From: an uncultured Candidatus Saccharibacteria bacterium
GTDB lineage: Bacteria; Patescibacteriota; Saccharimonadia; Saccharimonadales; JBBQAJ01
DNA length: 64,000 nucleotides
Reading direction: 5' to 3'
NCBI GenBank assembly: GCA_964597925.1
Contig: CAZQZT010000002.1
Location: 39,038-103,037, forward strand
The position numbers and the translations under genes are program-made. Positions 5,852 to 19,088 of the stretch are shown here, piece after piece. Below the pieces are notes generated by a model. The model was not told the DNA's origin. It searched no databases and worked only from the letters and a program-made list of their open reading frames with translations. Position 1 is the first letter of the stretch, and each line of letters opens with the position of its first letter.

Positions 5852-8137
5852 ATGGCGAAAAACCTAGTTATCGTGGAGAGCCCAGCCAAAGCCAAGACTA
5901 TAGAGAAGTTTTTGGGCAAAGACTACTCTGTTAAAAGTAGCTTCGGACATATCCGGGACCTACCAAAAAAAGGTCTCAACATCGATATAGCCAACAGTTT
6001 TGCGCCTACATACGCCGTACCGGCCGAAAAATCCAAAGTTGTCCGTGAGCTAAAAGCCGCCGCAAAAGGCGCCACCGTTTGGCTAGCCAGTGATGAAGAC
6101 CGTGAAGGAGAGGCCATTGCCTGGCATCTCTGCGAAGCGCTTGGACTCAAGCCAGCTGAAACCAAACGAATAGTGTTTCATGAAATTACCAAATCAGCCA
6201 TAGAAGAGGCTGTAAAAAACCCACGTACTGTTGACATCAAACTAGTAGACGCACAACAAGCACGACGAATTCTAGACCGCTTAGTGGGCTATGAACTCAG
6301 TCCCGTGCTGTGGAAAAAAGTTAGAGCAGGGTTATCTGCAGGCCGGGTACAGTCTGTAGCTGTACGACTGATAGTAGAGCGGGAACGGGAGATCAAAGCA
6401 TTTGAAGCAGAGGGTACATATAAAGTTATAGGTTCCTTTAACGGAGGTGAGGATTTTGACGCAGAACTAAACAGCCGATTAGCAGACGTAACTACAACCG
6501 AAAAGTTCCTAAACGACGCCAAACTTTCGACCTACAAAATAGCCAGCATCGACCAAAAGCCAAGTACTCGTAACCCGAGCGCTCCGTTTACTACCAGCAC
6601 GCTTCAGCAAGAAGCAGCCCGCCGGCTAGGATTTGGCGTCCGCCAAACTATGACCTTAGCCCAGCGACTGTACGAAAACGGCGACATTACCTATATGCGT
6701 ACAGACAGCACCACACTGTCTGGCCAAGCCATCAAAGCCGCAGAACAATACATCAAAAAGGAGTACGGCAACGACTACTGGCAAGTGCGCCAGTATAAAA
6801 CCAAAAACTCCAGCGCACAGGAAGCTCACGAAGCCATCAGGCCAACCAGTTTCAACAAACTGAGCGCTGGTACAGATGAGCAGCAAAAAAAGCTTTATGG
6901 GCTAATTTGGCGCCGTGCTTTAGCTAGCCAGATGGCACCCGCACAAGTAGATCGTACTGAAGTAAACATAGCCATGAGTGACAGGCCAGAGATGTTTGTT
7001 GCAAAGGGTGAAGTTCTAAAGTTTGACGGTTTTTTCAAAGTCTATGGTGGAGGCAAAGACGACACCATACTACCTCCGGTAAAAGATGGTCAAACGCTAG
7101 ACTTAAAAGGTATCCTGGCCACAGAAACATATAATCGCCCTCCTGCCCGCTACAGCGAAGCCAGCCTAGTGCGCAAACTAGAAGAACTAGGAATTGGCAG
7201 ACCGAGCACCTATGCGCCGACCATTAGTACCATCCAGACTCGAGAGTATGTGGAAAAAGCTGATTTGGAAGGCAAAGAGCGTAAAATAACTTTTCTAAAA
7301 CTAGAAAACGGAAATGTAGAAACAGGGAAAACTATCGAAATAACGGGTGCAGATAAAAACAAACTAATGCCTACCTCTGTGGCTGATGTTACTACTGACT
7401 TTTTGGTCAAACACTTCGGCACCGTTCTAGATTACGACTTTACCGCCAAAGTAGAGCAAAAGTTTGACGACATAGCCGAAGGCAAAGAGTCTTGGGTAAA
7501 AATGCTCGAAGACTTTTATAAAGACTTTCACCCGCTTGTAGAAAAGTCCGCAAAAGTCAGCCGTGAAGAAACCAGCCAAGCCCGCCAGCTGGGCGATGAC
7601 CCAGGCAATGGCAAGCCCATCATGGCTCGTTACGGCCGTTATGGGCCTATGCTACAACGAGGCGTAACCGAAAGTGAAGAAAAACCAGACTTTGCCCCTA
7701 TGCCAGAAGGCTTAACACTAGAAAACGTAACGCTTGAGCAAGCCCTAGAAATGTTCAAGCTCCCACGACTAGTAGGCACTACAGAAGACGGCAAAGACAT
7801 AAAGTCGAACATCGGCCGTTTTGGCCCGTATATAGTAGTAGATAAACTGTTTGTATCTATAAAACCACACGACCCGTTTAAGGTTACCGAAGAAGAAGCC
7901 CGGGAATTGTACGCCGAAAAGTTAGAAAAAGAAGCCAACAAATACATTGCCCAGTTCAAAAGTGGCATAAACATAGTAAACGGCCCATACGGTCCGTATG
8001 TAACCGATGGCAAAAAGAACGCCCGCATAGCCAAAGACACAGACGCCACCAAGATTACCGAAGCGCAGGCCAAGGAAATGATTGCCAAAGCCCCCGCCAA
8101 AAAAAAGAAACGCTTCGTCCGCCGCACTAAAAAGTAG
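5852..8137 (+). CDS. topA: DNA topoisomerase I (type IA)
   Basis: Toprim start MAKNLVIVESPAKAKTIEKFLG, DEDREGEAI, active-site region ITYMRTDS, and C-terminal repeats (GRFGPYI / NGPYGPYV) with a Lys-rich tail instead of Zn fingers. Confidence 0.92.
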   Translation: MAKNLVIVESPAKAKTIEKFLGKDYSVKSSFGHIRDLPKKGLNIDIANSFAPTYAVPAEKSKVVRELKAAAKGATVWLASDEDREGEAIAWHLCEALGLKPAETKRIVFHEITKSAIEEAVKNPRTVDIKLVDAQQARRILDRLVGYELSPVLWKKVRAGLSAGRVQSVAVRLIVEREREIKAFEAEGTYKVIGSFNGGEDFDAELNSRLADVTTTEKFLNDAKLSTYKIASIDQKPSTRNPSAPFTTSTLQQEAARRLGFGVRQTMTLAQRLYENGDITYMRTDSTTLSGQAIKAAEQYIKKEYGNDYWQVRQYKTKNSSAQEAHEAIRPTSFNKLSAGTDEQQKKLYGLIWRRALASQMAPAQVDRTEVNIAMSDRPEMFVAKGEVLKFDGFFKVYGGGKDDTILPPVKDGQTLDLKGILATETYNRPPARYSEASLVRKLEELGIGRPSTYAPTISTIQTREYVEKADLEGKERKITFLKLENGNVETGKTIEITGADKNKLMPTSVADVTTDFLVKHFGTVLDYDFTAKVEQKFDDIAEGKESWVKMLEDFYKDFHPLVEKSAKVSREETSQARQLGDDPGNGKPIMARYGRYGPMLQRGVTESEEKPDFAPMPEGLTLENVTLEQALEMFKLPRLVGTTEDGKDIKSNIGRFGPYIVVDKLFVSIKPHDPFKVTEEEARELYAEKLEKEANKYIAQFKSGINIVNGPYGPYVTDGKKNARIAKDTDATKITEAQAKEMIAKAPAKKKKRFVRRTKK

Positions 8138-8140
8138 TGT

Positions 8141-8149
8141 TTATCCACA
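8141..8149 (+). promoter_or_regulatory. Exact TTATCCACA 9-mer (DnaA-box consensus sequence)
   Basis: Exact match located 4 nt after the topA stop. It is one of four identical, same-orientation intergenic copies in the window. Its function is unknown. Confidence 0.35.
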
Positions 8150-8314
8150 ATTTTGTCTCTTGGCAAGTTGTTTTATAGTGGTATTTGCACAACACATACT
8201 TAGTTAAAGCGTCTATTTCATGATAAAATAATACTATCTCACAGAAAAAGTATTGACTTTTCGTACATTTGTTTTACAATTATACTATTCTTACATAAAG
8301 GACAGGGAAGAGCA

Positions 8315-9346
8315 ATGCCAGAAGCAGCCAAACTACAGATAGAAAAGATCGTAACCGACGTACTCGGGAATATAGACCGCGAACGCGAAAGAGAGATAAT
8401 TGCTCGCCGTTTTGGTTTGTTTGATCGCAAAGAAACTCTGGAACAGATTGGCGAACTCCTAGGCATTACCCGCGAACGTGTCCGCCAGCTAGAGAAGGCC
8501 GTAGTAGCCCGACTAAAAGTAAATGCAGATGGTGGACAGCTGCCACACTTAGCCATGGTGCAAGACGCCTTTATAGAACTACTGGGAGATATGGGCAATG
8601 TAGCCCGTGTCAGTGACCTTAGTGCAAAGCTGAACAAAGAAAACACGCGCATAGACCAGTCTAGGGTGTCTTTTCTAGCTCAACTGAGCCCTAAGCTAGT
8701 TGTGATAAATGACAATGACCATTATTACCACGCCGTGAGCCTAAAAGCCGTACATGACGAGAAGAAAGTGAAAAAGCTCGTAGAACAGATCCTAGCAGCG
8801 GTAAAACAGATTGGCAAACCAGCTACCATAGAAGATATAGCCAAAGAAACCGGTATAGAAAACGTCAAACACGCCGGAGCGCTAGCTAGCATCAGTAAAG
8901 CACTGGCTACCCTAAACGGCCGCTGGGGACTTTTAAAATGGCCTATGGTCAACCCCAAGAATATTCGTGATAAAATCTACGTTATCCTCAAAGAGCATGG
9001 CAAACACATGCACTTCAACGAAATTGCCGCCGCTATCAAGGACAGTGATTTTAAACGCAAAGACGTCACTACACAGGCAATTCATAACGAACTTATCAAA
9101 GACGAGCGTTTTGTATTGATAGGGCGGGGTATATATGCACTGGAAGAGTGGGGTTATGAAAAGGGCACTGTCGCAGACATTATCGCTGAAGTACTAAAGA
9201 ACTCCAAAGAACCACTTCACCGAGACGAGATTGTCAAACAAGTACTCAAAAAGCGCTATGTAAAAGAAACGACTATACTGCTAAACCTACAAGGCAAGCC
9301 ACAGTTCAAGCGAGTAGCCAAAGCCACCTACGCTTTATCGAACTAA
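8315..9346 (+). CDS. Sigma-70 region-4 HTH fused to a C-terminal HARE-HTH-like domain; no sigma region 2 visible
   Basis: N-terminus EREIIARRFGLFDRKETLEQIGELLGITRERVRQLEKAVVARL matches sigma region 4.2. C-terminus HFNEIAAAIK...IHNELIKDERFVLIGRGIYALEEW resembles HARE-HTH (RpoE-delta/ASXL type). Confidence 0.6.
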   Translation: MPEAAKLQIEKIVTDVLGNIDREREREIIARRFGLFDRKETLEQIGELLGITRERVRQLEKAVVARLKVNADGGQLPHLAMVQDAFIELLGDMGNVARVSDLSAKLNKENTRIDQSRVSFLAQLSPKLVVINDNDHYYHAVSLKAVHDEKKVKKLVEQILAAVKQIGKPATIEDIAKETGIENVKHAGALASISKALATLNGRWGLLKWPMVNPKNIRDKIYVILKEHGKHMHFNEIAAAIKDSDFKRKDVTTQAIHNELIKDERFVLIGRGIYALEEWGYEKGTVADIIAEVLKNSKEPLHRDEIVKQVLKKRYVKETTILLNLQGKPQFKRVAKATYALSN

Positions 9347-9867
9347 AAATAGCTTCAAAATGACCAATACGGGTCCGAGTCACGTAGCCTCTGAAGCTAA
9401 GCGGGACACAGACTATTTAGCTCATTCGGCTTAATCACATCGAGCATGAGAGACTTGGGTTAATTGAATACAGCATACGTAGAGCTACGCGATACTGTAA
9501 TGCACACGGCGTTTCCTGAGATGGCCAATTATGGTGATACAAGGCTAATTACCGAACTACATAAATGGGCTGGTAGACCTCTACTAAAACTAGCGTATCC
9601 TGTGAAAGCACGCATTCAGTACGTCTAAGCCAGTCATAATACCGAGACTCTCTAGCTTTTGTAAAAACCTACGCAAAATAGATTGTACAAAATACGAACA
9701 GCGCGGATTTGATGATAAGTAGGGCAAACAGCGGATAATGCGCTGATTTGCATAGACCAAGCAGGTGGGTAGAGAAACCCCGTAGCAAATTTGAAAACCA
9801 TTGCGTGGTGAGGCAAAATTATCTTAGAAGAGGATAGTGCAGTGTGTGAGACATTCACATATATTAC

Positions 9868-9895
9868 ACGTCGCACAATGTATATTTTGCGACTC
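9868..9895. promoter_or_regulatory. Candidate dif-like Xer recombination site
   Basis: ACGTCGCACAA-TGTATA-TTTTGCGACTC: two inverted arms (GTCGCAcAA / TTtTGCGAC) flank a 6-bp TGTATA core, in the gap where plus- and minus-strand gene blocks converge. The left arm and core resemble E. coli dif as I recall it. Confidence 0.4.
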
Positions 9896-10067
9896 GCTTA
9901 TAGTGTTGATTATTGATTAGCGATACCTCTTCTGGAGGGGACTTTTAGTACTATGTCTACCAGTTAACAAGTTCGCACGTTGGTTCTGTCTTCAACTAGT
10001 TACTAGCTAACTCGGTCGCTTACTACTGTCTACGGAAGTGCTGCCGTGATATCTGACATCATTTGAC

Positions 10068-10076
10068 TTATCCACA
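10068..10076 (+). promoter_or_regulatory. Exact TTATCCACA 9-mer (DnaA-box consensus sequence)
   Basis: Exact match inside the 9347..10332 ORF-free gap, next to a T-rich stretch (10090..10140). Confidence 0.35.
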
Positions 10077-10332
10077 GCATTGTCGTGAAATCATTGCTTT
10101 TTCACACTTTTGCTTTTAAAGTTTGTTTTCCCCTGTCCTACTAGAAAACTGAGAAAATTTGACTTTTGCCTGCTGTGCATGTGTAGTATAGTTTTTTGTC
10201 TGCTAAACAGCACTTACAATATATGAACATAATACGAACTAGAGCAGTGGAGAAGAAGCACAGCTTCTAACTCAAACAGTCTTTAGCACCCCGCCTTGGT
10301 TTCTGTACTGTTAGAGTGTTGGACTTATGGAC

Positions 10333-11244
10333 TCACTTGTAGAAAACTTTTACGTCAACACGCACATCCATATACTCACGCGGAGTAGTACCTTCCCTGT
10401 CTAGCTTTGCTTTGACCGCCAAATACGTACCGACGGCTTGGCGTGGGTCACTATCTGTTGAAAATTTTATATAGTAGGGTTGTCCGACAATCACTACATC
10501 TACTTGATTTGCCGACTTCGACGGTAGTGTAACAGATTGAGTTTTTAAATTTTGAGCTTTTAGTTGTGCATACAAACTCTGCAAAAACATAGCCTGATTG
10601 GCGGGTATTATGTTTTTGCCAGGCTCGGCAGTAATCCCAGAATCATCACGAACTACCGGTAAATCTTCTAGGTCGTTTTGGGTCAAGTCGGTAGAGCGAG
10701 CCATTACTTTTCCGTTGGCATTTACATAAAAAGAACCATTGGCACTAACTAACTGTAGCGTTGGTTTTACGGCTGTTAATATAACTGTTGGACGCTTACC
10801 AAGCAGTGGCAATTCAATCTTTACAGAATCTAACTCTGTAAACTGACGGGAAATGTCATTGCTAATATTTGCAGTAGAAACTGTTAGCTTGGTACGGTTC
10901 AATATAGATTTTCTCCAGATTGACTCTACGGCTTCCTGGTAAATTTTTGGCTCTCTGTGCACCGTATTTGGTGTATTCGTCAATATGACTTTAGCTGTTG
11001 GCGTCAATAAGCATGAATAACCAAGGGCAACTACTATTGCGAGGAGTGCAATATAGCTGGGTATATGTCCCCACCTGGGTCGATAACCTGCTGAAGCACC
11101 AGCAGCTGAAATGTCGGTTCTGCCGGTGTTTTGATCAGTATTTGACCCACCCCTGGCATAATACGAAAAAACAGCAGGATTATCTTTTACCGGGCGTTTT
11201 CGCGAATTATTGTCTGATTTATACTTTTTTTTGTACAATCTCAT
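10333..11244 (-). CDS. ftsQ: Cell division protein FtsQ/DivIB (POTRA domain)
   Basis: Cytoplasmic basic N-terminus, one TM segment (IPSYIALLAIVVALGYSCLL), then a POTRA-like beta-rich ectodomain. It is the last gene of the dcw cluster. Confidence 0.7.
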   Translation of the reverse strand: MRLYKKKYKSDNNSRKRPVKDNPAVFSYYARGGSNTDQNTGRTDISAAGASAGYRPRWGHIPSYIALLAIVVALGYSCLLTPTAKVILTNTPNTVHREPKIYQEAVESIWRKSILNRTKLTVSTANISNDISRQFTELDSVKIELPLLGKRPTVILTAVKPTLQLVSANGSFYVNANGKVMARSTDLTQNDLEDLPVVRDDSGITAEPGKNIIPANQAMFLQSLYAQLKAQNLKTQSVTLPSKSANQVDVVIVGQPYYIKFSTDSDPRQAVGTYLAVKAKLDREGTTPREYMDVRVDVKVFYK

Positions 11245-11251
11245 GATATTT

Positions 11252-12409
11252 TTACTCTTTTGTTTGTATATTAGCCTGCTCCAATATAATTACCGCCAAC
11301 TGCCTAGCTGAATCTGGAATAATCTGCTCGTGGAGGTTTTTTGCTAATACTTCCCTGTGTGGTGCGTCGTTTAACAAATTAGCAATGGTCGGCTCAAGTC
11401 CCGTTTCTGCATCATCCATTTGCTCTTCTTGCACTACGACAGCCGCTCCCTTCCCTGCTAACACTTCAGCATTTTTAAGCTGGTGTCCGCCTGCCAAAAA
11501 CGGACTAGGAACAACTATCACCGGCTTGCCCTGAATGCCTAGTTCAGCCACAGTGTTGCCGCTTGCCCTGGCTACTACCAAATCCGCAGCCCCCATATAG
11601 ATATACATGGGCTTCAAAAACTCAAAAACCTGCAAGCGGTTGTGCGAAAAATCTTCGTATATAGCAAGTTTATCTTTACCTACCTGATGAATCACATACA
11701 GATCTGGCCTATCAGCCAATAAGGTTTCGATACAGCCTCTGATTGTTTGGTTTATGCGAACCGCGCCAGAACTAGCGCCAGTGATGAGTAGCAGTGGTTT
11801 GTCTACCGGAACTCCTATTTGTTGCTTGTAGGTTTTTTGCAGAGCTTCATCCACCGGCACATAATTATGCTCAACCAGCACTCCAACCTGAATTGTTTTA
11901 GATTTGGGATAATCATAAACATCTGGCGGTAAGGCGGTAGCGTGAATTTTTACCCACTTACTCACTAATTTGTTAGCAAGCCCCGGCACGGCATCCGAAT
12001 CATGTGTGATTATTGGTATATGTTTTTTTGCGGCAGCCAAACCAATTGGCACCCCAACAAAACCACCTTTTAAAAACACAACGTCTGGTTTTATTTTGGC
12101 GAGTAGTCGGCTAGCCTGAGGTACGCCGATTAAAACATATATAGAATCACGCAGATTCAAAACGTTGGTTTTAACGTCAAGCAATCGCTTTAATACAGAA
12201 TCACCATAATAACGTCGTAGCTTTCCGGCTCTAACTGTATAAATCTGGTCAATATCCGGATTGTTAGCGGTTAGACCTTCAAACTTACTACCTTTTTCAC
12301 CAACATATATAACGCAAGCTTGCGGATTCAATAGCTTTATTTCGTGTGCCAATGCCAATATAGGTGTAATGTGTCCGCCGGTACCTCCACCACTTAGTAG
12401 TATTTTCAC
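11252..12409 (-). CDS. murG: UDP-N-acetylglucosamine:lipid I GlcNAc transferase MurG
   Basis: MKILLSGGGTGGHITPILALA start, C-terminal GASGNTVAELGIQGKPVIVVPSP...GGHQLKNA. Confidence 0.9.
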   Translation of the reverse strand: MKILLSGGGTGGHITPILALAHEIKLLNPQACVIYVGEKGSKFEGLTANNPDIDQIYTVRAGKLRRYYGDSVLKRLLDVKTNVLNLRDSIYVLIGVPQASRLLAKIKPDVVFLKGGFVGVPIGLAAAKKHIPIITHDSDAVPGLANKLVSKWVKIHATALPPDVYDYPKSKTIQVGVLVEHNYVPVDEALQKTYKQQIGVPVDKPLLLITGASSGAVRINQTIRGCIETLLADRPDLYVIHQVGKDKLAIYEDFSHNRLQVFEFLKPMYIYMGAADLVVARASGNTVAELGIQGKPVIVVPSPFLAGGHQLKNAEVLAGKGAAVVVQEEQMDDAETGLEPTIANLLNDAPHREVLAKNLHEQIIPDSARQLAVIILEQANIQTKE

Positions 12410-13635
12410 CGTTTACTCCTGTCTCGACGCCAATCTATGGTGTTTTCTTGCACAGGAGCACTCTGCGTTGCTTCATTTATGCCATAGGTCGTATAGCGTG
12501 ATATTTGGAACACCAGCCCAATAGCGGCAGTAGCAAACAGCACGCTGGTACCGCCAGCACTTATAAAAGGAAGCGTTATGCCTTTTAGCGGCAACAGCCC
12601 TATCATAGACCCTATGTTTATAAGAGTTTGGGTGCTGAGCCAAGCTAATACGCCAGCTACTATAAGTCTAGAAAAATCATCTGGTGCTCGCTCCAATATG
12701 TTTTTTATCCTGCTAAACAAGCCTACGAATAAAGCAATCAGCAGCGCCGTACCCATAAACCCAAATTTTTCAGCAATAATAGCAAAAATAGAATCATTTG
12801 AGGCCTCTGGCAAATACCCAAATGCCTGTGCCCCGTGCCCAAGCCCTTTGCCCGCAATCCCGCCGGAACCAACAGCAATTAGCGCCTGACAAGCTTGATA
12901 TCCAGCATTTTGACAATCTTGCTCTGGGTTCAAAAATATCAAAACTCTCTCACGCCGATAGCCAGAAGCACTAATTGCAATTGCTGTGCCGATGAGAATA
13001 AGTCCACTTATTTGTACGACACGTTTCATAGGTAATCCAGCCACATAGACCATGGCTGCCATCATAATAACCAATACCCCCGCAGAGCCTAAATCGCGCT
13101 GAGCTCCAGCCACCACAACTCCAAAAACAAACAGAACAACTAGCAGTGGCTTAAGGGTCTTGTTTGAATCGGCAACTGAACCCTGTTTTATTTTGTCAGC
13201 CAAAAAACCACCCCAAGCGATTATAAGGGCAAATTTAATTATCTCGACTGATTGCAGTGACTGGCCTCCAATTCTTATCCAACGATGTGCAGGATAGTCT
13301 GGGCTTACCGGTAATAAAAGTGCCGCAATGGTGGCAGCCACAGCTATAAATATCAATGGTATGCTTATTCGCCGCCAAACCGACAATGGCACCTGTGATA
13401 CAACTATAAAAGTTATTATGCCGAGAGCAATTGTGACGACCTGCTTTGTGACAAAATAATTTTCGTTGACGTTCTTTGCCGCTGCCAAACCCGGACTAAT
13501 TGCATAAACCACGATTAGGCCAACTACCAAAAGCACCACAGACAAAAGCAATAGAATGTAATCAGGCCGATGTCTGCGCTGGCCAGACCTATCTAAATGA
13601 GCTGGACGCCGAGCGTCACGCGGGCGCATTACCAA
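12406..13635 (-). CDS. ftsW: SEDS-family peptidoglycan polymerase FtsW
   Basis: About 10 TM segments and FtsW/RodA motifs (QPSEF-like SVEIIKFALI, GSGGIAGKGLG, LPEASNDSIFA). ATGA overlap with murG. Confidence 0.85.
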   Translation of the reverse strand: MVMRPRDARRPAHLDRSGQRRHRPDYILLLLSVVLLVVGLIVVYAISPGLAAAKNVNENYFVTKQVVTIALGIITFIVVSQVPLSVWRRISIPLIFIAVAATIAALLLPVSPDYPAHRWIRIGGQSLQSVEIIKFALIIAWGGFLADKIKQGSVADSNKTLKPLLVVLFVFGVVVAGAQRDLGSAGVLVIMMAAMVYVAGLPMKRVVQISGLILIGTAIAISASGYRRERVLIFLNPEQDCQNAGYQACQALIAVGSGGIAGKGLGHGAQAFGYLPEASNDSIFAIIAEKFGFMGTALLIALFVGLFSRIKNILERAPDDFSRLIVAGVLAWLSTQTLINIGSMIGLLPLKGITLPFISAGGTSVLFATAAIGLVFQISRYTTYGINEATQSAPVQENTIDWRRDRSKR

Positions 13636-13742
13636 CCCCCTGGCTGGAAACTTCGAAAATCAAGCTACAAAAAACAAATGACTGTTTAGCTGTTCTGGTC
13701 TGGTGCTTGTGTGAAGCTTGGAGTTTGAGGTTTGGCATTTGG

Positions 13743-14786
13743 CTATATATTCCTTCCAAGTAGAAACAATACAAGCCCAAGAATTCCTGCTACTTGACCA
13801 ACTATCCAAAAACGCATGGTTACTTTGGTTTCAGGCCAGCCAATTGCTTCAAAGTGGTGGTGAATCGGTGAAATAAGAAATAATTTTTTGCCGTTGCGTA
13901 ATTTTTTGGAAGCTGTTTGGAGTATCACTGATCCAGCCTCGGCAACGAATACTATACCAATTATCGGCAGCAAAGCTACTGTATCCGTAAGCATAGCAAC
14001 CACCCCAAGGGCAGTACCTAAAGCAAACGAACCGACGTCTCCCATAAAAAATCTGGCCGGGTATATGTTGAACCATGTATAGCTTAGCAATGCACCCACA
14101 ATGCTCATGCAAAAACCAGCTACTCCATAACGCTGTTCCATAAATGCAATCACAGCATAGATACCAAAAGCAATTGCTGTTAAACCTCCGGCTAAACCGT
14201 CTAAACCGTCACTTATATTTACCGCATTTGCCGTTGAAACCACTACAAGCACAAACAATGGAATGATAAGCCAGCCAACACTAAGCTGACCGAACCAAGG
14301 TATATGTATGCTTGTGACGTCTAGTTTGAAGTAAAAGAACCATCCACCAATCAACGCTACTAAAGTAGTCAAAAGTAGCTTAATTTTTGAAGAAAGCCCC
14401 GCTACACCTTTACCGGTGCCGCGTATGTTAATAAAATCATCCAACAGACCAATCGCACCCGCGCCCACAAATGCAGCTAAAGGTAGCCATGTTTCTGCTC
14501 TATCTAGGTTAAACAATAGCGTGACTAGGCCAGCTGAAATTACAAATATCATGCCTGCCATGGTGGGTATTTGCCTTTTATGTTTGCTAGCATGTAGTCT
14601 TGTAAATACAGTCGCCCTTTCGCCAGTCAATGTAGTTTCGCGGGGTTTTTTCCACCACTGACCACGATAAGCTAGCAATGTATAGATTGGTGTAATCAGC
14701 ATACTGAACACAAAACTCAACCCGCCCAGCAGTAATATCCTTGCTAGAGTATTTGTTTCTACGACTATGTTTAGTGTTTCTTGCAT
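13743..14786 (-). CDS. mraY: Phospho-MurNAc-pentapeptide translocase MraY
   Basis: GLLDDFINI, NAVNISDGLDGLA, FMGDVGSFALG and PIHHHFE motifs. Confidence 0.92.
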   Translation of the reverse strand: MQETLNIVVETNTLARILLLGGLSFVFSMLITPIYTLLAYRGQWWKKPRETTLTGERATVFTRLHASKHKRQIPTMAGMIFVISAGLVTLLFNLDRAETWLPLAAFVGAGAIGLLDDFINIRGTGKGVAGLSSKIKLLLTTLVALIGGWFFYFKLDVTSIHIPWFGQLSVGWLIIPLFVLVVVSTANAVNISDGLDGLAGGLTAIAFGIYAVIAFMEQRYGVAGFCMSIVGALLSYTWFNIYPARFFMGDVGSFALGTALGVVAMLTDTVALLPIIGIVFVAEAGSVILQTASKKLRNGKKLFLISPIHHHFEAIGWPETKVTMRFWIVGQVAGILGLVLFLLGRNI

Positions 14787-14816
14787 AAAATTATCCTATA
14801 ATTATACCTTAATTCG

Positions 14817-16592
14817 TTAACTTTTGGGCTTCACGCCGTGGTTATTGATCAACATGTCGGCTAGCTTAAAATAAACTGGCGCGGCTGCTTTTGCACCAGC
14901 GTAACCAGTTATATTTTTCGGTTCGCGAATTCGCACCACAATTACGTACTGCGCTTCATTGCCACCAATAAATCCAAGAAACGTACCCTCAAATCGGTCA
15001 TCATAATAACCGCCTCCCGGTTTGGAAATCTGTGCAGTGCCAGTTTTCCCTCCGTATGTGTATTCGACACGCAAATCCCGTACTCCGTAGGTAAGTTTGT
15101 TCTTCTGGAGCGTATAGGCCATATATTCTTGCATATCTTGGCTGGTAGCTGCACTAACTACATCTTTTTTAACAATTTTTGGTTCATGCTTGTCCAAACT
15201 ACCGTCATCTCTGACATATGCGTCTACTAAATGGGGCTGATAGTATGTACCCCCGTTTAGTACCGCAGCTATAGCCGCTCCCATTTGCAAAATTGTTTCT
15301 GTTTGTCCCTGACCGAATGCAGTATTGGCGTATTGTATATCTAATCCAAAGCCATCTACCGGGTCTGGAACTATACCCCCAGCTTCATTACTCTGCTCTA
15401 TTCCCGTAGGTTTGCCAAATTGGTAGTGATTTGTCAGGTAGTCGTGCCAGGTTACTCGTGCTTTTTCATTTATTTGGCCTCCTCCCATTTGCATAAGCAG
15501 CCATGTGGCGCCCGTATTCAGAGATAGTTGCAAAATATCAGCCACTGTCTTCGTTCCAGGCCCGCCATCTTCTTCAATGTTTCGTATTGTGGCGTCATCT
15601 ATCTTGAAGCTTGCTGGGTCATAATAACTGGTGTTTTTGTTTACTACGCCTTGGTCTAGCGCGGCGGCGGCGGTCAATGTTTTCATGATAGATCCGACTT
15701 CGAAAGCATCTGTAACGCTAGAATTTCTAAATACTGACTGGTCTGTAACTTTTGAAAATTCTGCTGGATTATACGTAGGGTAATTAGCCATTGCCTTAAC
15801 TGCCCCTGTTTTGGCATCCAGAATTAGCGCACTCCCCAGTGATGCCTTTGTATCTTCTACCTGCTGCTTCAATATATCTTCTAACTGTTGCTGCATGCCT
15901 AGATCTAGAGTTAAGAGTATCTCTTTGCCTGCTTCGGGATTGACCACAACATTGTCTTTGTTGGCTGCAAGCGGGACCCCTTGAGCATCTGTAATGGCCT
16001 TCAGCTTGCCTGTTTTGCCTTTTAGTTCGTTATTTAGGGTTTGTTCTAGACCATATTGGCCATTTCCTTCATCATTTACAAAACCAAGCACCTGGGAAGC
16101 TAACTGGCCCTGAGGATACGTCCGATAGTTTGTTTCCTGAGTTCCCACGCCCTTAAGTTTAAGTTTTCTTATGACATCGTTTTGCTCTTTACTAAGTCTT
16201 TTGGCTAGTATCTGGTAGCGACTATCTGCTTTCATTTTAGTCTCATAATCAGAGGCATTGCCACCTATTACATTTTGAACAGCAAGCGCAGTTGCGTTGG
16301 CATCTTTCACAAATTGCGGATCGGTATAAAGTGTGTAGAGTCTTTGGTTTAACACTATCTGAGTGATTTCATCACCGTTATGGGCAGCGATAGTTCCCCG
16401 TTCTGGCTCAATTTCATATTGTTTAAGCTGACCACGAAGCGCGGCTTGTTGATAATAATCATGTCTAACAACCTGTAGATAAAATAGCCGTATGGTAAAT
16501 ACGCCCGCTAAAATCAACAAAAACGCGTACCAGATTCTAACGCGTTTAATAGGATTTATTGGGTTAGCTTTTGGCTGTGACGGTTGTCTCAT
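14817..16592 (-). CDS. ftsI: Class B penicillin-binding protein (FtsI/PBP2B-type transpeptidase)
   Basis: N-terminal TM anchor plus dimerisation domain. Transpeptidase motifs SxxK (GSIMKT), SxN (LSLNTG) and KTG (GKTGTAQ). Confidence 0.85.
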   Translation of the reverse strand: MRQPSQPKANPINPIKRVRIWYAFLLILAGVFTIRLFYLQVVRHDYYQQAALRGQLKQYEIEPERGTIAAHNGDEITQIVLNQRLYTLYTDPQFVKDANATALAVQNVIGGNASDYETKMKADSRYQILAKRLSKEQNDVIRKLKLKGVGTQETNYRTYPQGQLASQVLGFVNDEGNGQYGLEQTLNNELKGKTGKLKAITDAQGVPLAANKDNVVVNPEAGKEILLTLDLGMQQQLEDILKQQVEDTKASLGSALILDAKTGAVKAMANYPTYNPAEFSKVTDQSVFRNSSVTDAFEVGSIMKTLTAAAALDQGVVNKNTSYYDPASFKIDDATIRNIEEDGGPGTKTVADILQLSLNTGATWLLMQMGGGQINEKARVTWHDYLTNHYQFGKPTGIEQSNEAGGIVPDPVDGFGLDIQYANTAFGQGQTETILQMGAAIAAVLNGGTYYQPHLVDAYVRDDGSLDKHEPKIVKKDVVSAATSQDMQEYMAYTLQKNKLTYGVRDLRVEYTYGGKTGTAQISKPGGGYYDDRFEGTFLGFIGGNEAQYVIVVRIREPKNITGYAGAKAAAPVYFKLADMLINNHGVKPKS

Positions 16593-16651
16593 AAGCGTAA
16601 ATTTCTAATTCGTCAAAGAATAATAATTGGAAAATTATTGGAAGAGGAACT

Positions 16652-17056
16652 TTAATTCTGAACAGTCGCAGACGATGACAATGATATCAAATTTTTTGCT
16701 GTTTCGCTGGCCTTAACCCGTTCTAGCGATTGCAACCTGGCAGCACTTATTGCTAGCTCATCGTTTTCTGTTTTTAGCTGGGACTGCTCTGTTTTTAGAT
16801 CGTTTATCTTGTAGCTCAGAGCGTTTGTTTTTGTGACTTGCGTCAAATACAATAAACCAAGCAAACAAGCCAAAACAACCAACATAATTGTGTTACTGAC
16901 CGGACCGAGAGTTTTTTCGTTTGCCTCATGTCTGGTGGTGTTTTGCTGGCGGGCGCCATAACGCTGACGACCAACTGCCAGAGAATTTGAATAGGTCATA
17001 GATTTTATTGTTTCTCTTTTTATATTTGTTTTTGTTTTTTGCCCCCTCATCCGCAA
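16652..17056 (-). CDS. ftsL: FtsL/septum-formation-initiator-like protein (true start probably internal, at MTYSN, 16999)
   Basis: One TM segment (IMLVVLACLLGLLYL) followed by a coiled-coil (LKTEQSQLKTENDELAISAARLQSLE), positioned between rsmH and ftsI. Confidence 0.6.
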   Translation of the reverse strand: MRMRGQKTKTNIKRETIKSMTYSNSLAVGRQRYGARQQNTTRHEANEKTLGPVSNTIMLVVLACLLGLLYLTQVTKTNALSYKINDLKTEQSQLKTENDELAISAARLQSLERVKASETAKNLISLSSSATVQN

Positions 17057-17143
17057 CTAGCGGATGAGGAAGCCTGCACCATGGTCACATCACTTTGACG
17101 TGAACCTTGTATGCGCGGGAGAGGTTTTTGACCTGTATCGGCA

Positions 17144-18040
17144 TTACTGCCCCTTCCTTTTTGTGTTTATTTTTACTGCGGCACGCAGTTTTGCACTGCG
17201 GGCTCGCGGATTGGAAACTAATTCATCCTCGCTGGCTGTCACCGGTTTTTTGGTGAGAAGCCTGAGGGGAGCGTCGTAGCGGTCACCAGCATACTCACGG
17301 AAAAACTCCTTTGTGAGTCTATCTTCCAGACTGTGGAAGCTGATGATCGCTATTCGCCCTCCGGGAGCCAGCAACTGAAGCCAAATCGGCATTGCCCGTT
17401 TCAGCAACCCTAGTTCATCATTTACGGCTATTCTAAGCGCCTGAAAGCTTTTAGTTGCCGGATGAACCTTGCTATGGCCACGCCATGCTTTGGCTATGAT
17501 GTTTGCGAGCTCGTGGGTTGTAGCTATTGGCCTATTGGCTATAACCATACGCGCAATGGTTCGTGCTTTTGGCTCTTCACCATATTCACGCAACAGCTTC
17601 ACTAGTTCCTCTTCACTATAGGTATTAACTATAGTTTTAGCGGTTAGTTCTTGACTGCTGTCCATGCGCATATCGAGCGGCCCATTGGCTTTTATGCTAA
17701 ACCCACGGCTCGCGTTATCAAGGTGCGGTGACGAAACGCCCAAATCAGCCAAAATAAGGTTGTATTGACGGCCACGACTCAAAAGTTTTACCGAAGCGGT
17801 CAAAAAATCCTCGTGGATTATGTCCGCTCCGTGCAACGCTTTTTGGCTTTTTAGCTCGTCAATCGCTTTTCGATCGCGATCTACAAGAGTTGCTTTTGTA
17901 GCTTGTAAGGTGCGTTCCAGGATTTTCTGGGCATGCCCGCCGTATCCTGCCGTCAAATCGAGGTATTGCTCCCCTTCCTTCGGGTCTAGATACTGTAGAA
18001 CGTGCTGCAGAAGCACTGGAATATGTTTTTTATCTGCCAT
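17144..18040 (-). CDS. rsmH: 16S rRNA m4C1402 methyltransferase RsmH (MraW)
   Basis: HIPVLLQHVLQYL, DLTAGYGGHA, DLGVSSPHLD, SFHSLEDRLTK. Confidence 0.92.
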   Translation of the reverse strand: MADKKHIPVLLQHVLQYLDPKEGEQYLDLTAGYGGHAQKILERTLQATKATLVDRDRKAIDELKSQKALHGADIIHEDFLTASVKLLSRGRQYNLILADLGVSSPHLDNASRGFSIKANGPLDMRMDSSQELTAKTIVNTYSEEELVKLLREYGEEPKARTIARMVIANRPIATTHELANIIAKAWRGHSKVHPATKSFQALRIAVNDELGLLKRAMPIWLQLLAPGGRIAIISFHSLEDRLTKEFFREYAGDRYDAPLRLLTKKPVTASEDELVSNPRARSAKLRAAVKINTKRKGQ

Positions 18041-18507
18041 TGTGGAGATATTGTTTGTTTATTTTGGTGTTTTGATTTTGGTGTTTGTATCTTGCTTTTT
18101 GTATTTACAAGGTCACCTATCCAGCAGCCAACTATTTGTTTTTTGGTGTTTTTGTTTTTGTGTGTCATATGAGCATATGTAGAGACTTTTTTTGTGGGTT
18201 TTAAAAACCTACGACGTCCTTACTGCTTATACAACGATTTTGAGAGACTTATGTGTGAGGTGGAGTTTTGGGAGGTGTTTTAATGGAATGTACGAGGGTT
18301 TTTAGCGTGGTGCCCTATTTCCACGTGTTGTCTGCCAGATAGCTAACCTCGGGTAATGAGACAAACCAAAGGTTTTTCTCAACTAAGCCAGCAAAATGGA
18401 ATACATTTTTGCGGGCTGCCCTTTTCCTATAACAGGAATAAAGCCTTGTGCTAGTTTTTCTATCCATGTGAACTTTTATTGTTAAGGTGCAATTACCAGT
18501 AAATTTG

Positions 18508-18861
18508 CTAGTTTGCTAGGATACGCCAGTATCTTTTGCCTACACTTACGGCAGATATGTCGCGCTTTATGCCGGCATAATCTAGTAAATGCTGCTCTAT
18601 GGTGATTCGTCCCTGCCTGTCGTCTGGCTTCATGTCTGTCTTGCCCATCCGGAATTGGATGTTCAAGTCAGCAATCCGCTCGTCAAGGAGATCACCTTCT
18701 AGCCGGGGCTCAACTAGGTTTTCCCAAACATCTTTTGGATATAGATGTAGGTATTGGCCAAAGCCCCTTGTTACAACAGCACCACTTGCAAACTTGTCGC
18801 GCAACTCCGGCGGAAGAGTTAACCTCCGCTTTTCGTCGAGCTTTCGTTCGAAGTAGTCCAT
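18508..18861 (-). CDS. mraZ: Transcriptional regulator MraZ (short form, 117 aa)
   Basis: KLDEKRRLTLPPELRDKF and DRQGRITIEQHLLDYAGI are two SpoVT/AbrB-like MraZ repeats. AAGGTG SD lies 6 nt upstream. Confidence 0.8.
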   Translation of the reverse strand: MDYFERKLDEKRRLTLPPELRDKFASGAVVTRGFGQYLHLYPKDVWENLVEPRLEGDLLDERIADLNIQFRMGKTDMKPDDRQGRITIEQHLLDYAGIKRDISAVSVGKRYWRILAN

Positions 18862-18990
18862 TGGTACACCTTTAGTGGTTAATATACAGTGGTTTTTGTT
18901 TTATCGAGTCTGGTAACTGTTTTGGCTACCTACGACAACCCACTAACAGGAGTTTACTCCCCACCATTACCCACAAGCAAGCACTTTATA

Positions 18991-19015
18991 TAACAAAACC
19001 GCCCCTTTTAGGGGC
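18991..19015 (-). terminator. Rho-independent terminator (minus strand) after ORF 19089..19571
   Basis: GCCCC-TTTTA-GGGGC hairpin (19001..15) followed on the minus strand by GGTTTTGTTAT. Confidence 0.6.
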
Positions 19016-19017
19016 AG

Positions 19018-19054
19018 TTATCCACAGTTTTTAAAATTTAGGACTTTATCCACA
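19018..19054 (+). promoter_or_regulatory. Two exact TTATCCACA 9-mers in direct repeat (19018..19026 and 19046..19054; 28-bp period)
   Basis: Both are exact matches in the same orientation as the copies at 8141 and 10068. They lie about 160-190 bp upstream of the mraZ start, between the stop of ORF 19089..19571 and its terminator. Confidence 0.4.
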
Positions 19055-19088
19055 ACATATGGTGTGTCGGCCGTTACTCTAGGCGCTA

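Follow-up and report, generated by a model that had tools for sequence, protein, structure and literature searches.

A 64-kb window from an uncultured Candidatus Saccharibacteria bacterium (64,000 nucleotides of contig CAZQZT010000002.1, analysed at full length) contains four exact copies of the 9-mer TTATCCACA, which is the canonical high-affinity binding site of the replication initiator DnaA, the DnaA box (consensus TTATNCACA, TT(A/T)TNCACA; PMC2533591). The copies occupy three positions. Box 1 lies upstream of a gene encoding a protein with sigma-70 region 4 and HARE-HTH domains (the sigma4/HARE-HTH gene), box 2 lies beside a dif-like palindrome in a probable replication terminus, and boxes 3 and 4 form a pair upstream of mraZ, at the head of the dcw cluster of genes for division and the cell wall. 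From the comparative evidence we regard it as rather probable that all four are true high-affinity DnaA boxes kept by selection, with operators at two of the three locations and, at the third, a DnaA-binding site near the dif-like palindrome. The three sites around the dcw operon and the probable terminus suggest that replication and division are wired together in this lineage.

All four copies read on the + strand, and the - strand of the window contains no exact copy. Dinucleotide-preserving shuffles of the window gave a mean of 0.56 copies, and none of 100 shuffles reached four. According to the map of open reading frames (ORFs) and domain searches, all four fall between long ORFs; with an intergenic share of 11.1% of the window, this has a probability of ~1.5e-4, or ~1.4e-3 when the mraZ pair is counted as one event. 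A preliminary description of this DNA had reported four same-strand, strictly intergenic copies, and the counts confirm it. The places it gave were also borne out: box 1 starts 4 nt past the topA stop (the ORF ends at 8137), box 2 falls in the gap that separates the sigma4/HARE-HTH gene from the dcw cluster, and the mraZ start codon (ATG at 18861, - strand) has the pair 157-193 nt upstream of it. What it called a 28-bp-period direct repeat amounts to no more than the 9-mer present twice, 28 bp apart. One-mismatch variants as a class (21 vs 15 expected) and the relaxed consensus TTWTNCACA (12 vs 8.3 expected) are unenriched in the window, so the signal is the perfect word at particular places. 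Since mraZ and the dcw cluster are on the - strand, the word reads TGTGGATAA relative to the operon.

Two sets of relatives were compared. Scanning one genome per species with the RsmH protein of the window yielded 80 loci, 73 of which were Saccharibacteria/Saccharimonadales by their record titles, with RsmH identities between 44% and 84%. The sigma4/HARE-HTH protein, used to scan metagenomes, yielded 80 further loci. Other contigs encoding a protein identical to that of the last dcw gene (303 aa) showed the same gene order as the window. At the mraZ site the MraZ-type repeats GTGGG-N5/6-GTGGG-N1/2-GTA served as an independent anchor, and 54 of 55 distinct loci had a box with no more than one mismatch (33 TGTGGATAA, 18 TGTGGAAAA and 3 reversed). 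In 46 of these 54 the first GTGGG began 40-44 nt after the end of the box. When 56 sequences were profiled with MAFFT, the consensus was aacTGTGGAtAAgT ... aaAaa...cTTGca.GTGGGTaa..GTGGGTAGTAt....AGTGGGTAAtcGTGG; conservation of the box equals that of the -35-like TTGCA and of the four MraZ repeats, whereas the intervening DNA is unconserved. The boxes lie in the promoter region of an mraZ-headed operon at a conserved, fixed spacing.

The dif-adjacent element is the best conserved of the three positions. A box was found there in 95 of 99 distinct loci, as TTATCCACA in 34 and as a one-mismatch form, nearly always TTTTCCACA, in 61; in all 95 it lies 170-310 bp from the dif-like site, on the dcw side and in constant orientation. 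The conserved core reads atTTGACTTWTCCACAg (TTGACTTWTCCACAG), and the information profile peaks on the box. At site 1 a box with at most one mismatch was present in 34 of 67 distinct loci (TTATCCACA in 14, TTTTCCACA in 9, also TTGTCCACA, TTATACACA and TTATCCACC). Most of these boxes are fixed 70-73 nt before a TGnTAnAAT element and ~100 nt before a TTGACW-N16/17-TAnAAT promoter, and a small subset of loci carries a reversed box instead, ~28 nt nearer the promoter. At all three positions the sites are intergenic and conserved against diverged flanks, as expected under selection.

The preliminary description had staked its proposal on conservation in relatives, on enrichment of the word in intergenic DNA and on binding by DnaA, and the first two speak for it. 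Conservation was found at all three positions, in the proportions given above. As to the second, TTATCCACA occurred 105 times in intergenic and 11 times in coding sequence of 1.8 Mb of pooled Saccharibacteria loci, and TTTTCCACA 110 and 13 times; 200 letter-permuted control words of the same composition averaged 2.8 intergenic and 9.3 coding occurrences. The ~37-fold intergenic enrichment of TTATCCACA reflects site-specific maintenance rather than a genome-wide census, because the loci were picked around the sites and the genomes are related. In these loci TTATCCACA is nearly absent outside the three positions.

The most telling result is the substitution spectrum. Among ~180 orthologous sites TTTTCCACA is by far the commonest variant, followed by TTGTCCACA, TTATGCACA and TTATACACA. 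Substitutions fall almost entirely on position 3 (A to T, sometimes G), with a few on position 5; they are rare at positions 1, 2 and 9, and position 4 never changes. Position 7 is changed once, at a single site-1 locus whose word, TGTGGATTA, lies on the opposite strand. For positions 6 and 8 the sole changes are in three best matches that are isolated and doubtful (TTATCCATA, TTATCCCCA and TTATCCGCA). This pattern matches the known tolerance of DnaA, TT(A/T)TNCACA (PMC2533591). One genome can contain both the A and the T variant, which is expected if one protein accepts both, and the position-3 variant shows no co-variation between sites within a genome. Saccharibacteria encode DnaA and replicate bidirectionally from an origin between dnaN and dnaA (PMC6031116), so the protein is present in the lineage. 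Coordinates of the boxes and of the features around them are collected in Table 1.

Table 1. DnaA-box words and surrounding features of the 64-kb window, in order of position.
Feature	Position	Strand	Basis or remark
Box 1, TTATCCACA	8141-8149	+	Exact match; promoter region of sigma70-region-4/HARE-HTH gene
Promoter-like elements of sigma4/HARE-HTH gene	8221-8280	+	Consensus scan; TGATAAAAT at 8221-8229, TTGACT-16 nt-TACAAT at 8253-8280
sigma4/HARE-HTH gene, 343 aa	8315-9346	+	Pfam and NCBIfam: sigma-70 region 4, HARE-HTH (RNA polymerase delta-like)
dif-like 24-bp palindrome, GTCGCACAATGTATATTTTGCGAC	9870-9893	.	Probable replication terminus marker
Box 2, TTATCCACA	10068-10076	+	Exact match; in 986-bp gap, 9347-10332
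Weaker second box, TTTTTCACA	10098-10106	+	Fits TTWTNCACA; 30 bp from box 2, direct orientation
dcw cluster	10333-18861	-	Pfam and NCBIfam
303-aa protein gene	10333-11244	-	dcw cluster
murG	11252-12409	-	dcw cluster
ftsW	12406-13635	-	dcw cluster
mraY	13743-14786	-	dcw cluster
Penicillin-binding protein (PBP)/ftsI	14817-16592	-	dcw cluster
ftsL-like	16652-17056	-	dcw cluster
rsmH	17144-18040	-	dcw cluster
mraZ	18508-18861	-	dcw cluster
Predicted mraZ promoter (P_mra)	18939-18980	-	-35 TTGCTT at 18980-18975; -10 TAAACT at 18956-18951
MraZ-type GTGGG repeats	18974-18970, 18964-18960, 18943-18939	-	Within predicted P_mra
Intrinsic-terminator-like hairpin, AACTGCCCCTAAAAGGGGCGGTT, then T-run	18997-19019	-	Between box 3 and mraZ promoter (-35)
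Box 3 (proximal), TGTGGATAA	19018-19026	- (dcw direction)	Exact match
Box 4 (distal), TGTGGATAA	19046-19054	-	Exact match; ~-110/-102 from predicted start

Box 3 ends 43 nt before the first MraZ repeat, at ~-82 to -74 from the predicted P_mra start. Box 4 is 28 bp further upstream, 34 nt past the stop of an upstream 160-aa ORF, and shares bases with an imperfect palindrome, in its 3' arm. Only some relatives have a second perfect box at a distance of 26-29 bp (loci L001, L032, L039, L041 and L145); in most, the box-4 position is a hairpin. This hairpin or palindrome, ~25 nt upstream of the mraZ box (window 19035-19060; ACGCTACATGTAGCGT, CCACCATATATTGTGGTGG and similar), shows compensatory arm changes between species and occurs in L003, L005, L008, L013, L017 and L020, among others. 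The arms themselves form two inverted DnaA-box-like words (TTATCCAC...GTGGATAA) in L041, L020/L050 and L023. The separate terminator-like hairpin downstream of box 3 probably terminates the 160-aa ORF, and similar hairpins stand at the same place in L001, L003-L005, L008, L009 and L015.

The architecture of P_mra is kept across Saccharibacteria: four GTGGGTA-type MraZ repeats are arranged two and two around the -10 element, at offsets 0, +10, +31 and +41, and the first abuts the -35 element cTTGCAa. GTGG repeats are MraZ sites, with the form GTGG[A/T]G in B. subtilis (bioRxiv 10.1101/2022.02.09.479790). Downstream, mraZ and rsmH are separated by an unusually long non-coding spacer (467 bp, 18041-18507) with T/G-rich repeats (tttggtgttttgattttggtgtttg...) and no Rfam match; a long spacer is common in the lineage, as implied by the box positions relative to rsmH in relatives. 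At the other end of the dcw cluster, the 303-aa protein has no Pfam or NCBIfam match and occupies the expected ftsQ/divIB position. Its gene is not followed by ftsA and ftsZ, and the cluster ends at the dif-like gap.

From box 1 it is 174 nt to the next gene (8315). A -35-like TTGGCA follows the box at 10 nt, and TGATAAAAT, which resembles an extended -10 element, at 71 nt. Both promoter-like elements listed in Table 1 are kept in relatives at a fixed distance from the box, and we infer that they are promoters. The sigma4/HARE-HTH gene is a putative target of box 1. Its product contains region 4 only of sigma-70, together with two HARE-HTH domains, and is preceded by the two tandem promoter-like elements; the gene adjoins the dif-like site in all relatives fetched with that protein.

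The 986-bp gap that holds box 2 is a probable replication terminus, and its palindrome is a candidate Saccharibacteria dif. The palindrome was found in 111 of 162 fetched loci (at most 4-5 mismatches; exact in dozens), always between the sigma4/HARE-HTH gene and the dcw cluster. Its core resembles the dif core of E. coli, CGCATAATGTATATTATG; it has a central TGTATA and CGCAnAA arms, both of which look like a XerC-type arm. Genes converge on this site in all 18 loci with long flanks, ~94% of the coding sequence in the 54 kb to the right of the gap is on the - strand, and the cumulative GC skew of the window has its maximum near 8-10 kb. The terminus assignment is based on the orientation of the genes, on the dif-like site and on the skew of the window itself. 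Local GC skew within 10 kb on either side of the dif-like site in relatives is negative on both sides and uninformative as terminus evidence.

Within the gap, 198 bp separate box 2 from the dif-like site, and the last dcw gene has its stop 257 nt away from the box. Both distances vary among relatives, which argues against a rigid complex with Xer. Of 94 distinct relatives, 23 have the second, relaxed box beside it at +30 to +34, and 28 have one within +20 to +45. In some relatives this second box is a perfect TTTTCCACA, and a few (L022, L004, L108 and L052) have two to four tandem boxes at the box-2 position.

Other readings of the gap were tried and set aside. A known RNA was dropped as an explanation after Rfam returned no match in the window at gathering scores and none in the 1-kb gap at E<=5, and the search for tRNAs was likewise empty. 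A 15-aa ORF (MNIIRTRAV..., ~10224-10271, +) that looked conserved against L001 was present in 3 of 99 loci and was rejected. So was a hairpin GTGAAA...TTTCAC next to box 2, considered as an RNA element, which is lost in relatives. A promoter at site 2 (TTGACT-17 nt-TGAAAT) lacks key -10 bases, and a parS/matS/Ter-like reading of the site-2 flank, where by eye 9 of 16 parS positions match, was also rejected. Apart from the box, ~220 bp of the stretch that runs from the last dcw gene to box 2 (10040-10260) are highly conserved against the closest relative, L001, including TTGACTTTTGC and AATATATGAACA.AATACGAACTAGAGCAGTG, and a further block conserved against L001, CGCTGTTCGTATTTTGTACA, lies near 9680-9700. 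An IS1595-family (ISXO2-like) transposase gene (841-1698, -) lies ~8 kb from the dif-like site.

The proposal in the preliminary description that DnaA uses these sites as a transcription factor or for its titration is supported by conservation, by the substitution spectrum, by the fixed promoter spacing and by the precedent of B. subtilis. A tblastn search with an approximate B. subtilis DnaA query gave no match in the window and L001-L082, and domain searches detected neither dnaA nor dnaN in the window. In E. coli DnaA, the residues of domain IV that touch the bases are R399, P423, D433, H434, T435 and H439. A literature search specifically on Saccharibacteria DnaA boxes or terminus-located DnaA boxes found nothing specific. 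Several points weigh against the proposal. Single and paired boxes bind DnaA less stably than clusters in B. subtilis chromatin immunoprecipitation (PMC2533591). The P_mra hexamers of the window are weak and fail the consensus scan, so this promoter is placed by conservation and the distances to its start are predictions. The pooled counts, drawn from loci around these genes in genomes that share descent, carry the limit stated above. Two further points lead to the main rival, which we consider fairly unlikely, namely that a lineage-specific protein other than DnaA reads the word. The candidate is the sigma4/HARE-HTH protein, which would autoregulate through box 1 and act also at P_mra and dif. 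Box 1 lies in the promoter region of its gene at fixed spacing, making autoregulation possible, and at box 2, the most conserved site, a -35-like TTGAC is fused directly to the 5' side of the box and conserved beyond what DnaA alone explains. The protein carries the helix-turn-helix of sigma-70 region 4, and synteny of its gene with the dif-like site and the dcw cluster holds throughout the lineage. However, the 9-mer is identical to the universal high-affinity DnaA box, with variants that follow DnaA tolerance; sites of this asymmetric, mostly single kind are typical for DnaA but not for helix-turn-helix regulators that act as dimers; and TTGAC is missing at sites 1, 3 and 4. A perfect TTATCCACA would be expected to bind canonical DnaA anyway, and the lineage encodes DnaA. 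The preliminary description's alternative of another protein using the same word is made less likely but retains some probability.

For the pair upstream of mraZ, the resemblance to MraZ sites has to be considered, as the boxes might be distal MraZ operators, that is, extra GTGG-type repeats. TGTGGATAA contains GTGGATAA, one base off the local MraZ repeat GTGGGTAA, and in B. subtilis the MraZ repeat reads GTGG[A/T]G (bioRxiv 10.1101/2022.02.09.479790); the proximal box starts ~50 nt, or about five helical turns, before the first MraZ repeat, and in L047 and L049 a GTGGGTAA repeat abuts the box. We find this quite improbable, given that in 54 loci the box is always GTGGA(T/A)AA and never GTGGG, whereas the promoter repeats are always GTGGG, and that the same 9-mer with the same A/T variation occurs at two loci without MraZ repeats; the 28-bp spacing of the boxes also misfits the 10-11-bp MraZ period, and 43 nt separate them from the true repeats. 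A perfect box with a relaxed one 30 bp from it in non-coding, T-rich DNA, with two to four tandem boxes in the relatives named above, might also recall a replication origin, and the region, especially the 1-kb gap, could be a secondary or remnant one. This is very improbable. Genes converge on the gap, the cumulative GC skew peaks there with no trough, a near-invariant dif-like palindrome lies in the same gap, and the window is without dnaA or dnaN, between which the Saccharibacteria origin maps (PMC6031116). No site in the window has more than two boxes or a tandem pair with DnaA-trios within 16 bp (criteria of PMC8287927). The earlier judgement that the sites are not an oriC accords with the convergence, the dif-like site and the missing dnaA and dnaN. 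Chance occurrence of functionless words could be argued from the small number of copies and from the unenriched one-mismatch and relaxed counts. Its probability is negligible, as no shuffle reached four copies and the three positions are conserved, with diverged flanks, across species with 44-84% RsmH identity; the conservation data refute it.

Taking the four words as DnaA boxes, we infer DnaA as the binder as well as a direction of regulation. By analogy with B. subtilis, DnaA, whose active amount would reflect replication status, may bind the box or boxes upstream of P_mra and, together with MraZ autorepression, tune transcription of the division and cell-wall operon to how far replication has proceeded. 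The same analogy favours repression under delayed replication, the sign being a guess. At box 1 the target of DnaA would be the sigma4/HARE-HTH gene. Of the three sites, the one next to dif is both the best conserved and the least explained, and it may be a new element. Its simplest reading would be a DnaA-binding or titration site that is replicated last. A bolder version, which we think unlikely, makes it an undescribed DnaA control site of the terminus. Being last to replicate, it could signal that replication is complete, for instance through titration or inactivation of DnaA, or it could serve as an accessory site for Xer/FtsK-dependent dimer resolution; together with the dcw and sigma4/HARE-HTH boxes it would form a compact terminus regulon coupling the end of replication to division.

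Saccharibacteria and other bacteria of the Candidate Phyla Radiation (CPR) are ultra-small, mostly uncultured epibionts, and to our knowledge almost nothing is known of their cell-cycle control. A box conserved at a fixed distance from the mraZ promoter, in species with RsmH identity of only 44-84%, gives a concrete and testable hypothesis. If it is true, the replication initiator directly tunes the division and cell-wall operon, which has been proposed but never firmly established in B. subtilis. For the nearly universal dif-adjacent box we found no described counterpart, and it points to a possible role of DnaA at the terminus. The comparative data also provide a map of P_mra (-35, -10 and four MraZ repeats) and a candidate dif for the phylum.

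Compared with known systems, the sites share their 9-mer with the basal unwinding system of oriC, which consists of tandem DnaA boxes and DnaA-trios (PMC8287927). They differ from it in that the window has no tandem pair, recognisable trios or unwinding element, dnaA or dnaN, and in the convergence of genes on the site. At 10068 and 19018 the box is followed by a G, as are R1 and R4 of E. coli. Like datA and DARS1/2 of E. coli and the DnaA-box clusters of B. subtilis, box 2 is a conserved, non-coding element at a defined position without an obvious promoter tie; unlike these loci, which have at least four boxes, it consists of one or two boxes in most genomes. In E. coli, datA and DARS1/2 lie away from the terminus dif. 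An IHF-type site, a feature of the E. coli loci, was not identified for box 2. The B. subtilis clusters are described as oriC-proximal (PMC3245932), whereas box 2 is beside dif at the terminus.

Box 1 fits the pattern of DnaA regulons, in which an isolated high-affinity box lies near a promoter. Known members include dnaA itself (autoregulation), nrd, sda and, in C. crescentus, ftsZ and gcrA. It departs from them in lying ~90 nt upstream of the nearest recognisable -10 element, and in that the literature found holds no report of the sigma region 4 plus HARE-HTH family as a DnaA target.

The closest counterpart is the B. subtilis mra operon (yllB/mraZ-ylxA/mraW-ftsL-pbpB), whose control by DnaA was reportedly described by Goranov et al. 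in 2005 (cited in PMC2533591 and PMC8203912). There, DnaA is reported to bind the yllB(mraZ)/ftsL promoter and to repress it on replication arrest (PMC2533591; PMC8203912), and MraZ GTGG repeats lie in the same promoter (bioRxiv 10.1101/2022.02.09.479790). Here both binding and control by DnaA are predicted. The present case also differs in phylum (Patescibacteria/CPR) and in its one or two perfect boxes held at a strict ~42 nt from the MraZ repeats in dozens of species. In both, DnaA boxes and MraZ GTGG repeats stand in the promoter of an mraZ-headed operon with ftsL and ftsI, and the proposed logic, from replication status to division gene expression, is the same; the DnaA boxes on the mra promoter would best be filed as a new lineage for a link known from B. 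subtilis.

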